From Eledone cirrhosa (taxonomy: Eukaryota), in NCBI GenBank assembly GCA_964016885.1, contig CAXHJY010001643.1, forward strand, positions 1,137 to 65,136: a stretch of DNA of 64,000 bases, written 5' to 3'. How positions within the stretch are numbered: position 1 is the first letter of the stretch; each line of letters starts with the position of its first letter. A program made the translations under genes and the position numbers. Positions 31,425-36,456 of the stretch are shown here, piece by piece. Below the pieces are notes generated by a model. It did not search any database. It worked only from the letters and a program-made list of their open reading frames with translations, and was not told where the DNA came from.

Positions 31425-31618
31425 ATAGGAACAAGTAAGACCCCGACGGCTGAGCTCAAGCCGTTTCAACGGCTAATTCTGTACAGAATTAGCCGTCGAA
31501 ACGGCTTGAGCTCAGTCGTCGGGGTCTTACTTGTTCCTATTACCCACTCTACTACCCTAAGTATTGAGTACTTTGGTGCGTTATGGTCCACCTGGTTCCT
31601 TACCACATTTCCTTCGTT
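31425..31618 (+). mobile_element. Penelope-like element fragment: 116-bp palindrome plus tail (family A)
   Basis: Palindrome 31425-31540 centred on GTAC, 2 mismatches. Includes the hammerhead 3' half GAAACGGC-TTGAGCTCA-GYCGTC. Tail GAGTACTTTGGTGCGTTATGGTCCACCTGGTTCCTTACCAC is shared with 36379-36456. Confidence 0.7.
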
Positions 31619-32263
31619 ATATATATATATATATTTATATATTCGAGTGATCAGTGGCCTTTAGACTCACCTGATCAAAGAAACAATTGTTAATACTGTA
31701 AATAAAACCCTTTCTGTACAGACGACCATGTTATTCTTCACTCTTTCACTACTGTCACTCCAAGAATAACCTACATGGGAATTCTCGCAAACTCACCACC
31801 GAACTAAGGAAACCTCTTGTTGAGTCAAACAACGCCGTACGTCAAAACTATCCATAATACAGAGTACCCACAACCTCTAACTGGATTACCTAAAACGATA
31901 ACTTGTTAGTTATCCAATATATATATACACACACATGCAGTATATACTGTATATATATATATATATATATATATATATACAGTATATATATACATACAGT
32001 ATTTTGATAATTTGACTGGTATAAGCAGTATTTAAAATCGAGTGTCACAACAACATTGCAGATAGTAATTTTAAGACGGATTCAACCACAAAGTCGCAAT
32101 GAAACACATGTTAATACTTGGAATAAATCCTACTGTATAGCTTATCCTCGTTATTCTTCATTGTTTCGTTATATATATATATATATATATATATATATAT
32201 AAATATATATATATATGTCGATTCAATTTGGATTGCCTCGGAAACATAACAGAAATGTAACAA

Positions 32264-32337
32264 GCTGTCTGATGATGTCACGACACTCGCACACAGAACA
32301 GTGTGGCCAGTGTCGCCATTGAAATATATATCACAGC
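32264..32337 (+). ncRNA. Type I hammerhead ribozyme motif
   Basis: Stem I GCTGT/ACAGC; CTGATGA 32269-75; long stem II (CGACACT/AGTGTCG, CACAC/GTGTG; base imperfect); GAAA 32321-24; palindromic TATATA minimal stem III; AUC triplet (after 32332). Confidence 0.8.
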
Positions 32338-32786
32338 ATTATTATTAAAGGACTTGAACATCTGAAACTACTTCGCTTTTCCTTATTCGATATTTACTCC
32401 GTCACTCCTATGTGGAAAAAGTACGTTGAGTGCTTGAATTGAATTGCATCAATGTTTACCCTAATATATATATATATATATTAGATACAAAGCGTAGCGT
32501 AGAATTTGAAATGGTAAAATAGTGCTTCCGCCGTATATTTGACTAAGTAAATTATCCTATTAGTTGGAGTTATAAAACCCCATAGAATATGAAAAATGGG
32601 ATGGCCATTGACGTACAAGAGACACGAACCCACATATATGTATATGTGCGTGCGTGTATATATATATATATGATTCCAGTTCCTCAGAGAAATAACAACG
32701 CAACCAGGAGCTGGACATATCGGAGTATTGACGGAGTAAAACACACTTCAACAACATGTGTACCTGTCTTTCCCACACCAATTCGG

Positions 32787-32841
32787 ACTGCCTGAAGAGG
32801 TCACAGCCAATGATGGCTGTCACCGAAATATATATAGCAGT
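32787..32841 (+). ncRNA. Type I hammerhead ribozyme motif
   Basis: Stem I ACTGC/GCAGT; CTGAAGA 32792-98; stem II GGT-C-ACAGCCA/TGGCTGT-C-ACC; GAAA 32825-28; TATATA minimal stem III; AUA triplet (after 32836). Confidence 0.88.
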
Positions 32842-33169
32842 ATATCTATAATTTATAATAAACGAAGCCAAATTTTACCTATTTGACTTAATTATTTTAT
32901 ATATATATATATTGACTGTTGGTTAATCAATGATAAACATTGATTATCAGCTGAATTAATTATACAAGTATAAAATATACTGAAAGGAAAACCATCTCAA
33001 ACTAAACACTGTTTTTTTTTACTATATATATATATATACATATATATATATATATATATAAATCGGTTATCCATCCATAAGTATATATATATAGGACTAG
33101 AACTGTTTCATTCCAATGAAACCAACAAGTCGCTTAGAAAGTATTTCTATATTGATTATATATATCCTG

Positions 33170-33292
33170 TTGCTTAAACTTTAATCTGTTATTTTATTAA
33201 ATATTTGCTCTACGGTTCTTATATATTTGATATATATTTATCCCTATCGAGCACTCTTTGGATTTTAGTCTTCAAATTTATTATTATTACTA
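33170..33292 (+). mobile_element. Tail of the variant-hammerhead family (reverse complement of 56451-56575)
   Basis: TTGCTTAAACTTTAATCTGTTATT..GAGCACTCTTTGGATTTTAGTCTTCAAATTTATTATTATTACTA; related pieces at 31298-31400 and 49521-49578. Confidence 0.6.
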
Positions 33293-34795
33293 TATATATA
33301 TATATATATTCCATTATTTAAACATAGAGCAATCCATCTCTCTATCTCTTCATATTCTATATCAATATACATAAGTGTGTGTGTGTGTGTGTGTGTGCGT
33401 GTGCGTGCGTGTGTGTGTGTGTGTGTGTGTGTTTGCCTGTTCGTGCGTTTCATTTAATAAACGTGATTGATGATACACGACCTACCACCTGTAGAGCTTT
33501 GATCTGTTACTTCCGCCATCAGGTAGGATGTTATTAAGGTGTTATATTGTAGAATGAATGGAGTGAGGTGGGGGTGTCAAGAAGAGGAGGAGAATAAGGA
33601 GGAAGAAGGGGATTAGAAATAGGGAAGAGTATGAGGGTAATGATGGATATTCCCAATGGCAGTCAGCCTGCAAATTTTATAACATGATAATGTATCACAC
33701 ATAATTTGGGATGAAATGTAATACAATCGTTTATACACCATATATAATCTCAGGCACACACGCAGCCCCTCATATATATATATACATACGCGCGTACACA
33801 GACGCACACACACATACACACACACACACAAATATATATATATATATATATATATATATATATATATATATATATATATATATATATATATATATATATA
33901 TATATATATATATATATATATATATATATATATATATATATATATATATACATGTCTGTGTGTGTGTGTGTGTGCATGTACGCTTGAGTAAGTGTGTGTT
34001 TATGTGTGAATCTTTGTAGTACCGACTTCATGACAATGGTGTATTTTTAATAGGTCACATTCAATTTTCCTTTATTTACGGATCTTAGATTTTATTGTAC
34101 ATATCCAATATCATAACTTGATTTAATGTGAAATAAAGTATTAAATCTTTTATAGAGTCCAGTCTACTATAATAATTGTATTAAATTGTACAAGATTCAA
34201 AGAAGAGATATTTTATATTGTTGATTTATTTCAGACACACCTACACATACATACACATACACTCAGACACACACACACACATGTAAACGTCTAAGTGGAT
34301 CTCCGTCAGTTTAATGATGTATATTCTAGATGATTGGTGATTCACAGTAATGAAGCCATGACAGCAAAACACACTGAGTGAAACGACAGAACATTTTAAC
34401 TACATATATAGTTCAACCTACGGTCTTCCAAATAATATATATATATATATATATATAAGTATTGAAATTTCCGTTGGAAACAGAAAAGGTCATAGAAATG
34501 AAGAGTGCTTTTATTTCGTATTCGCCTCATTCGGGAAACCTCTGGTAATGAGGTAATTATATTGTATTGATATTTTTATACATTATATATATATATATAT
34601 ATATATATATATATATATATATATATATGTATATATATATATAAATATTTATATTTATATTTATATAAATATGTATATATACATATATACTTATACATGT
34701 GTATACATTTATATATATATATATATATATATATATATATATATATATATATATATGTATATATAAGAAGAAAAGATGGTTAAAGGAGTTCCATG

Positions 34796-34866
34796 TATTT
34801 TATTATGCGCATTTCAAAAACAAATATCATCATGCAATAATATTTGAGTTTTCATCAGATAAAACA
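34796..34866 (-). ncRNA. Type I hammerhead ribozyme motif (left arm of the large palindrome)
   Basis: Mirror copy: TCATCAG at 34852-58 and TTTC at 34812-15; stem II CAAATATTAT/ATGATATTTG; predicted cut between 34804 and 34803. Confidence 0.78.
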
Positions 34867-34988
34867 GGAAGACATGATATGAAGGTTAAAGACACTTGTG
34901 GATAGTGCAGTTTTAAATCAACATATCATATGTTGATTTAAAACTGCACTATCCACAAGTGTTTTTTAACCTTCATATCATGTCTTCC

Positions 34989-35059
34989 TGTTTTATCTGA
35001 TGAAAACACAAATATTATTGCATGATGAGGTTTGTTTTTGAAATGCGCATAATAAAATA
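34989..35059 (+). ncRNA. Type I hammerhead ribozyme motif (right arm of the large palindrome)
   Basis: Stem I TGTTTTAT/ATAAAATA; CTGATGA 34997-35003; AT-rich stem II; GAAA 35040-43; palindromic ATGCGCAT stem III; AUA triplet (after 35051). Confidence 0.75.
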
Positions 35060-36242
35060 CATGGAACTCTATTAACCATCTTTTCTTCTTATATATTATG
35101 TATACTCCAGTCCTACAAACTGTAGAGTGCTTCTTATCCGATATCTTTTATGTATTTATTGTACTACAATAAAACTCACCTCCTACACACACACACACAC
35201 ACATATATATATATATATATATATATATATATATATATATATATATATATATATATATATATATATATATATATATATATGTATATACATATATATACAT
35301 ATATATACATATATATATATATATATATATTAATATTTATATTTATATAAATATGTATATATACATATATACTTATACATGTGTATACATTTATATATAT
35401 ATATATATATATATATATATATATATATGTATATATATATAATATATATATATATATATGCTTATAAAAAACCCCGCATGACCAAGTCTTTAGAATAAGA
35501 GGGCACACAGGACAAAGACATTGGAAAAAAGAACCTAAACACAGACAGACTCTGTAACAGAATATACCTACAATACTTCTGATAAGAAATATATAATTTA
35601 CACACACGCTGAATTGTTTTTCTCCTCCAGGAAGGCTTACTTAGTAAGACTGTGTGTGTGTGTGTGTGTGTGTGTGTGTGTGTGTGTGTGTGTGTGTGTG
35701 CCTGTGTTTGTGTAGGCGTCATTGTATGCGTGTGTGTGAGTGCTCCTGTGTGTATGTGGGCATCCTTTTATATATGTGTGTATGTGCTTGTATGAGTATG
35801 TGGGTGTTATCTTGTGTGTGTTTCTGTGTTCATGTGTAAATACGTGCGGATATGCGCGAGGCTATTCGCAAATATTTGTGTTGGAATTTTTTGAAAATAT
35901 TTATTACGTTGTAAAACCAATTGCAATACCGCTTTCTTATCAGTGTGGCATTTTTTTCTATTCTTTGATAAAAGATAACACGATTCTGACCTCTAACGAA
36001 AGCCTCCTTCAAGGAGCCACATTTGACATGCAATAACGTTCTCCTATAAATTCTCTGAAATATTATTCTCATAAATTTCCCGCCGAATGTATTGTATGTT
36101 TATAGAAGCCACACAGCAGAACATAAGGCACCTATTGAGACAAACACGCACACGCAATCCAATGGTATAGCAAATATATATCATACATACAGTGGTATAT
36201 ATATATATATATATATATATATATATATATATATGTATATAT

Positions 36243-36456
36243 ATAGGAAAAGAGTCAGAACCCCGACGGCAGAGCTCAAGCCGTTTTGACAGCTATTTCT
36301 GGAGGCTATTTGAGTCCAGAAATAGCTGTCGAAACGGTTTGAGCTCTGCCGTCGTCGTAGTTCTGACTCTTTTCCTATTATCTACTCTACAACCCAAAGT
36401 ATCGAGTATTCTGGTGCGTTATGGTCCACCTGGTTCCTTACCACACTTCCTTCGTT
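36243..36456 (+). mobile_element. Penelope-like element fragment: hairpin plus tail (family A, copy 2)
   Basis: Inverted repeat 36243-36378 with an 11-nt loop; same tail as 31541-31618; lies between (TA)n tracts. Confidence 0.7.

Follow-up and report, generated by a model that had tools for sequence, protein, structure and literature searches.

Two hairpins of one repeat family lie within 64,000 nt of the Eledone cirrhosa genome (contig CAXHJY010001643.1, positions 1,137 to 65,136, forward strand; hereafter, the window), and they raise the question of how each came to carry its own variants on both of its arms. The answer that we favour, and consider probable as a whole, is that both are stump-sized insertions of a Penelope-like element (PLE) in (TA)n, with inverted arms that formed as proposed below. 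Within a (TA)n microsatellite, each unit would be the 5'-truncated, hammerhead-bearing end (pseudo-long terminal repeat, pLTR) of an endonuclease-bearing (EN+) PLE or its non-autonomous derivative. That the units are PLE-derived is very likely; that two-ended priming was the main route to the inverted arm is roughly an even call.

Two hairpins with matching arms and a one-sided tail

The units are laid out as follows (X5 and X8 are public sequencing runs, described below).

31426..31481, minus strand: inverted arm of copy 1, antisense to the hammerhead strand; its outer end adjoins (TA)n
31482..31483, no strand: centre of copy 1, TA; a perfect short palindrome spans the junction
31484..31539, plus strand: direct arm of copy 1, with presumed stem II 3' strand, GAAAC, stem III, GUC and stem I 3' strand
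31498..31520, plus strand: hammerhead 3' half of copy 1, with GAAAC, a 6-bp stem III with a near-palindromic loop, and GUC; no CUGANGA upstream
31540..31619, plus strand: one-sided tail of copy 1, 80 nt; last letters TA, then (TA)n
36244..36303, minus strand: inverted arm of copy 2; its outer end shares its family position with that of copy 1
36304..36314, plus strand: loop of copy 2, 11 nt; native family sequence of runs X5 and X8 matched from 36306 onward
36315..36377, plus strand: direct arm of copy 2; contains the hammerhead 3' half (36331-36353) and, 3' of GUC, a duplication of 3 nt
36378..36457, plus strand: one-sided tail of copy 2, 80 nt; 72/80 identical to the tail of copy 1

Both hairpins are present where the first-pass annotation of this DNA had placed them (31425-31540 and 36243-36378) and belong to one family. 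Their folding energies of -104.6 and -107.5 kcal/mol compare with shuffle means of -29.2 and -35.0, respectively (z of -23.3 and -21.1; 100 dinucleotide shuffles each, none of which came near). The copies are dispersed, 4.8 kb apart, and their centres differ. In copy 1, 54 of 56 arm positions are paired; in copy 2, the arms match at 54 positions of the span in common, mismatch at 4 and are offset by one 3-nt gap. An alignment of all four arms has 20 variable columns, 11 of which are copy-specific on both arms and 9 confined to a single arm, with none separating left from right arms. The earlier observation that both arms of a copy share its own variants is thus borne out, and the most parsimonious pairwise count between the arms of the two copies is 5 substitutions and 2 one-base indels.

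What the first-pass annotation overlooked is that the family unit extends 80 nt beyond each hairpin. Its order is (TA)n, inverted arm, direct arm, tail and (TA)n, with TA at both outer ends, and each copy is flanked on either side by (TA)n. Because 80 nt of family sequence lies outside it on one side, the inverted repeat is not terminal. The tails differ at 8 sites, and copy 1 has the allele common in the sequencing runs (34-99%) at all 8. The tail of copy 2 departs at 4 sites from alleles that are near-fixed in the runs (92-99%), and the arms of copy 2 are the more diverged. These patterns fit arms that were identical at insertion, came from different source subfamilies, and have aged since.

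Junctions in public sequencing runs and the route to the inverted arm

A search of public sequencing runs with 31427-31905 as the query listed 18 runs (best share 0.47), and records from four of these (X1, X5, X8 and X16) were aligned to 36302-36457 at 80% likeness. The family is high-copy in these runs, with 8287 contigs in X1 and 16,765 reads in X16 (both organism A), and 2 records each in X5 (organism B) and X8 (organism E). No RNA runs were among the 18 listed, which has no bearing on expression. Searches by exact pattern found 0 family copies in metagenome contigs, viral contigs and prokaryote genomes. Behind 36354, the consensus of loose alignment ends reaches the end of the arm and then enters (TA)n (1652 reads in X16, agreement 0.77; 99 contigs in X1, agreement 0.66); hence, the inverted arm repeatedly has its outer end where both window copies have it. 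One X5 contig and one X8 contig continue past the arm end into the tail. Some of the copy-specific variants carried on both arms are alleles that segregate in the family, such as A at 36347 (13-15% of depth) and T at 36327 (~24%); beyond the entries listed there are 262 further loose-end and 93 further substitution rows. The depth of the tail in X16 is 2.8 times that of the arm, as 5' truncation predicts, which is weak support as X16 is RAD-seq (restriction-site associated DNA sequencing).

Among the 13 joints listed for X1 and X16, eight join opposite strands. In copy-2 coordinates, the inner ends of their arms fall within 36311-36317, which belongs to the 3' strand of a long hairpin in the presumed place of stem II, and their direct parts begin at 36313, 36372, 36385, 36386, 36388, 36400, 36407 and 36421. 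Arm and direct part do not overlap in six of the eight, overlap by 6 nt in one, and form a full palindrome in one, a tally that is not to be read as a frequency, since contigs break at hairpins and palindromic junctions are probably under-counted. The palindromic case (36313/36313) is a perfect fold-back, found in both X1 and X16. In one X5 contig (record 10), the two parts are likewise arranged without overlap and are separated by 7 letters. Together with the differing centres of the window copies, the eight joints at differing coordinates support the view that the inverted arm formed separately at each insertion, as the first-pass annotation had proposed.

We suggest that two-ended priming could produce this range of structures. 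The PLE protein would nick both strands of its (TA)n target, one target 3' end would start reverse transcription where the tail ends (36457), and the other would do so from a second site (36377) lying 80 nt further upstream; both of these presumed priming sites end in TA. Both cDNAs would head for the 5' end of the RNA, halt prematurely, in most cases within the long hairpin that precedes GAAAC, and be joined head to head, as in the twin or dual priming of L1. Same-sense cDNAs would be able to pair only at self-complementary sequence, which would place the junctions in the hairpin. A tail-primed cDNA that passed the second site would give a palindrome, as in the window copies, and one that stopped short of it would give an inversion without overlap, as in the six joints described above. 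Under such a mechanism, the arms would share variants because both were copied from the same source transcript or transcripts, and the CUGANGA core would be missing because copying ended before reaching it, rather than through conversion.

The same PLE stumps could instead have acquired their inverted arms by fold-back, whereby a cDNA or antisense template self-primes at the hairpin and is then extended back along itself. We regard this as unlikely, although it is the strongest of the alternatives. The perfect palindromic centre of copy 1, the 36313/36313 joint, and the position of inner ends within the hairpin all accord with it, and self-priming has been argued from junction palindromes in the Discussion of an earlier PLE study (PMC3846280; here and below, published work is drawn on in part). 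However, six of the eight joints hold arm sequence that is missing from the direct part, unless later deletions removed it, and fold-back alone does not account for an outer end that recurs 80 nt before the 3' end. As a general route, fold-back, which the first-pass annotation had offered as an example, does not suit joints in which arm and direct part share no sequence; it may be the source of the palindromic subset. Two-ended priming fits the joints better, albeit on thin support.

Probable hammerhead parentage and the weaker alternatives

Both right arms carry the 3' half of a hammerhead ribozyme, namely GAAAC, a stem III of 5-6 bp, and GUC (31498-31520 and 36331-36353). A UH-closed stem III of this length turned up in 50 of 5000 arm shuffles for copy 1 and 197 of 5000 for copy 2, and the window contains nine half motifs with at least 5 pairs on its two strands, three of them within these copies; as evidence for a hammerhead, the shuffle rates are suggestive only. 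A search for the whole-motif pattern found the CUGANGA core and the 5' strand of stem I to be absent from both copies. Of the earlier proposal that the CUGANGA half had been replaced by the reverse complement of the other half, the presence of GAAAC, stem III and GUC in both right arms stands, and the replacement was only inferred, with no CUGANGA seen in the family.

In X5, the 30 letters upstream of 36306 include a 9-nt complement of 36320-36328 (majority allele) and an 8-nt complement of 36309-36316 (run alleles, one G-U pair), and X8 has the last 15 of these 30 letters in common, as judged by eye. The native RNA would thus probably form a long hairpin just before GAAAC, at the place of stem II. 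A reading of 36302-36311 as the final GA of the core plus stem II was dropped, as X5 and X8 carry other native sequence upstream of 36306. Judged from these features, the hairpin family is likely of hammerhead parentage. Both copies are predicted to be dead as ribozymes, self-cleavage being unexpected without the core.

It is rather improbable, in our view, that the GAAAC-stem-GUC element does not come from a hammerhead and marks a ribozyme-free PLE or an end resembling a short interspersed element (SINE). Such an origin would account for the lack of any CUGANGA in the family, and for a half motif that appears in 1-4% of shuffles and nine times in the window. Moreover, Naiad PLEs are described as lacking canonical hammerheads and favouring (TA)n (PMC8557442). 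Against it, the 9-nt complement in X5 closes a long stem before GAAAC, like the long stems II of whole motifs nearby. It may be that the X5 contig is what remains of an old palindrome, although 15 of its upstream letters recur in X8.

Homogenisation after insertion, by quasi-palindrome correction or gene conversion, would make the copy-specific symmetry uninformative about insertion. Palindrome correction is a known process, and several variants present on both arms are absent among the family alleles listed. We nonetheless think it improbable, and more so than a non-hammerhead origin. The arms still differ (2 of 56 positions in copy 1; 4 mismatches and a gap in copy 2), and the difference between the arms of copy 2 is about that predicted by its age, judged from the 4 tail changes at near-fixed sites. 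Divergence between copies is no greater in the arms than in the tails (8/54 versus 8/80, Fisher P 0.43), so later conversion is not needed, and conversion would not yield differing junctions.

A fold-back miniature inverted-repeat transposable element (MITE) with long terminal inverted repeats and a preference for TA sites, which in its one-breakpoint form was the contrary case named by the first-pass annotation, would be short, high-copy, hairpin-forming and flanked by TA, but it is largely refuted by the 80-nt tail outside the repeat on one side, by an internal structure that varies between the two window centres and among the eight joints, and by the lack of side-specific columns (0 of 20). 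Nor do the hairpins resemble functional pre-miRNAs, as the annotation had suggested, since no Rfam miRNA match reached its gathering score (best 58.4 of 113 for copy 1 and 36.5 of 59 for copy 2).

Several observations weigh against PLE stumps formed by two-ended priming, in addition to the under-counting of palindromes. Any target-site duplication is unreadable within (TA)n, and the 80-nt tail exceeds the 30-40 nt of published PLEs. In a Pfam scan covering 145 of the 200 complex frames of the window, no reverse transcriptase (RT) or GIY-YIG frame was found, a protein kinase being the sole match above cut-off; the link to a PLE protein is thus drawn from the anatomy of the units alone. CUGANGA was unseen for the family in the runs, where loose ends show only 30 letters upstream. 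Rfam hammerhead models gave no match in 31280-33300 or 34760-35190, including at the whole motifs described below, and none for the window among the matches listed (150 of 648). Five of the joints are one contig each, the others have 1-3 read starts, and three may be one locus. Finally, the inner ends cluster at the very point where, on the left, reference similarity stops, even though none of the rows was flagged with intervening letters. Hence, the earlier placement of the inversion at the ribozyme stems holds in part: the inner ends (36311-36317) do lie on the hairpin where stem II belongs, but the same spot is where similarity to the reference runs out.

Neighbouring palindromes, known systems and implications

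Between the two copies lies a third palindrome of a different family (z of -43.9), whose plan resembles theirs.

34764..35091, no strand: third palindrome, arms ~163 nt, 157 matches and 6 mismatches; left end in (TA)n
34989-35059 (plus strand) and 34866-34796 (minus strand): whole type I hammerhead motif, one in each arm
35092..35185, plus strand: candidate one-sided tail, then (CA)n/(TA)n; boundary uncertain, single copy

Each arm of this palindrome still has a whole hammerhead motif, so the core is not lost as a matter of course, and the centre of a palindrome need not lie within the ribozyme.

Other hammerhead-like pieces are scattered nearby. A whole minimal type I hammerhead motif of another family lies at 32787-32841 (plus strand), with a 5-bp stem I, CUGAAGA, a long stem II and a palindromic (UA)n stem III; like the motifs of the third palindrome, it counts in favour of the PLE reading. 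A further hammerhead-like motif, recognized by eye and missed by the strict pattern, occupies 32265-32335 (plus strand); it has CUGAUGA, its stem II is long and branched, and its stem I contains GC. Two decayed fold-backs, related to each other and belonging to another family, are found at 44996-45093 and 33090-33152; their right arms carry GAAAC and their centres differ. The former (z of -8.2) retains in its loop a core-like heptamer, changed at one position, and the hairpin of the latter (33093-33150) was not significant (z of -1.8). Short repeats at 31650-31760 and 32060-32170 also appear related by eye and are possibly further decayed PLE ends, the second having the final seven letters of the studied family before (TA)n. 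Pieces of another repeat occur twice, partly inverted, at 31300-31400 and 33165-33283 (30-nt arm pair), and inverted arms of 17-21 nt enclose ~300 nt of complex sequence at 3074-3451.

The window as a whole is animal-type DNA of 31% G+C, rich in (TA)n, (CA)n and (GA)n, and a repeat search was dominated by microsatellites. The minus strand holds exons of a Ser/Thr protein kinase (Pfam Pkinase) at 19752-25278 and a fourth, scoring slightly under the cut-off, at 18166-18522, which places the hairpins 6-11 kb upstream of the first kinase-coding exon of this gene. A frame at 58153-58527 (plus strand), which we take to resemble the C-terminal part of the ORF2 of a long interspersed element (LINE), had no Pfam match. 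A 104-aa complex open frame at 41087-41398 (minus strand), also with no Pfam match, is possibly an exon.

The insertion pattern itself is already known for PLEs, whose insertions often combine a 5'-truncated copy in inverted orientation with a tail at one end (Craig et al. 2021, PMC8557442, including the Fig. 2 legend; Arkhipova et al. 2013, PMC3846280). EN+ PLE insertions with an inverted pLTR and a tail share with the units described here the head-to-head inverted 5'-truncated copy, the extension on one side only, the palindromic junction, and AT-rich or (TA)n targets (PMC3846280, PMC8557442). Unlike them, the whole insert here is ~200 nt, its tail is 80 rather than 30-40 nt long (PMC8557442, PMC11167929), no ORF is linked to it, and several family members lack overlap between inverted and direct parts (compare PMC3846280 and PMC8557442).

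Biochemical work on PAc (Poseidon of Anolis) in vitro offers a close parallel (Frangieh et al. 2024, PMC11167929). The PLE protein was found to cut and extend both strands of AT-rich DNA and to start at two RNA sites that bound the tail, with the hammerhead a short way upstream of the start sites, whereas the start sites proposed here come from genomic ends alone, and the passages drawn on report no joining of paired cDNAs to give an inversion. The final steps of PLE insertion were left for validation in that study. L1 twin or dual priming (Meyer et al. 2010, PMC2837659) is alike in that the second target strand primes on the RNA and gives rise to an inverted 5' part, with twin priming yielding inversions with deletion. 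L1, however, ends in poly(A) and has no fixed internal site, whereas here the second site recurs and palindromic products exist. By analogy, the hairpin family would be L1-like in its working without being an L1.

PLE hammerheads have been described as type I, with a long helix II and a palindromic helix III, and mostly in truncated PLEs, including dual motifs on opposite strands 100-700 bp apart (Cervera and de la Pena 2014, PMC4209133). The third palindrome (34764-35091) follows this plan, whereas the two studied copies retain only the 3' half, with a stem III of 5-6 bp. Non-LTR retrozymes (bioRxiv 10.64898/2026.07.22.740005) are likewise short, non-coding type I hammerhead repeats tied to PLEs, but are tandem with whole ribozymes, in contrast to the dispersed, inverted and broken copies in the window. 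A tandem retrozyme was excluded on these grounds, given two dispersed copies 4.8 kb apart and no whole motif. In a search of open-access main texts, which did not extend to Repbase or Dfam, nothing closer was found on PLEs with twin priming and inversion, and PMC8557442 alone linked octopus, hammerhead ribozyme and Penelope.

A broader model, which we advance tentatively and rate somewhat below an even chance, is that PLE integration is routinely two-ended, with a protein dimer using two fixed RNA sites to prime both strands of the target, and the long hammerhead stem II serving as both stop and joining point. If true, no antisense template would be needed, and a single model would cover the tail, the junction palindromes and the head-to-head orientation. 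The one lead that merits pursuit is the set of non-overlapping inversions. X1 and X16 hold thousands of matching records, and with an assembly, a map of their junctions could separate fold-back from two-ended priming. Stumps of this kind are easily mis-annotated as MITEs or microRNA hairpins. The copies are inert repeat debris, yet they are a record of how PLEs finish insertion, and if the proposed route is true, this one family records the whole series, from non-overlapping inversions to perfect palindromes.

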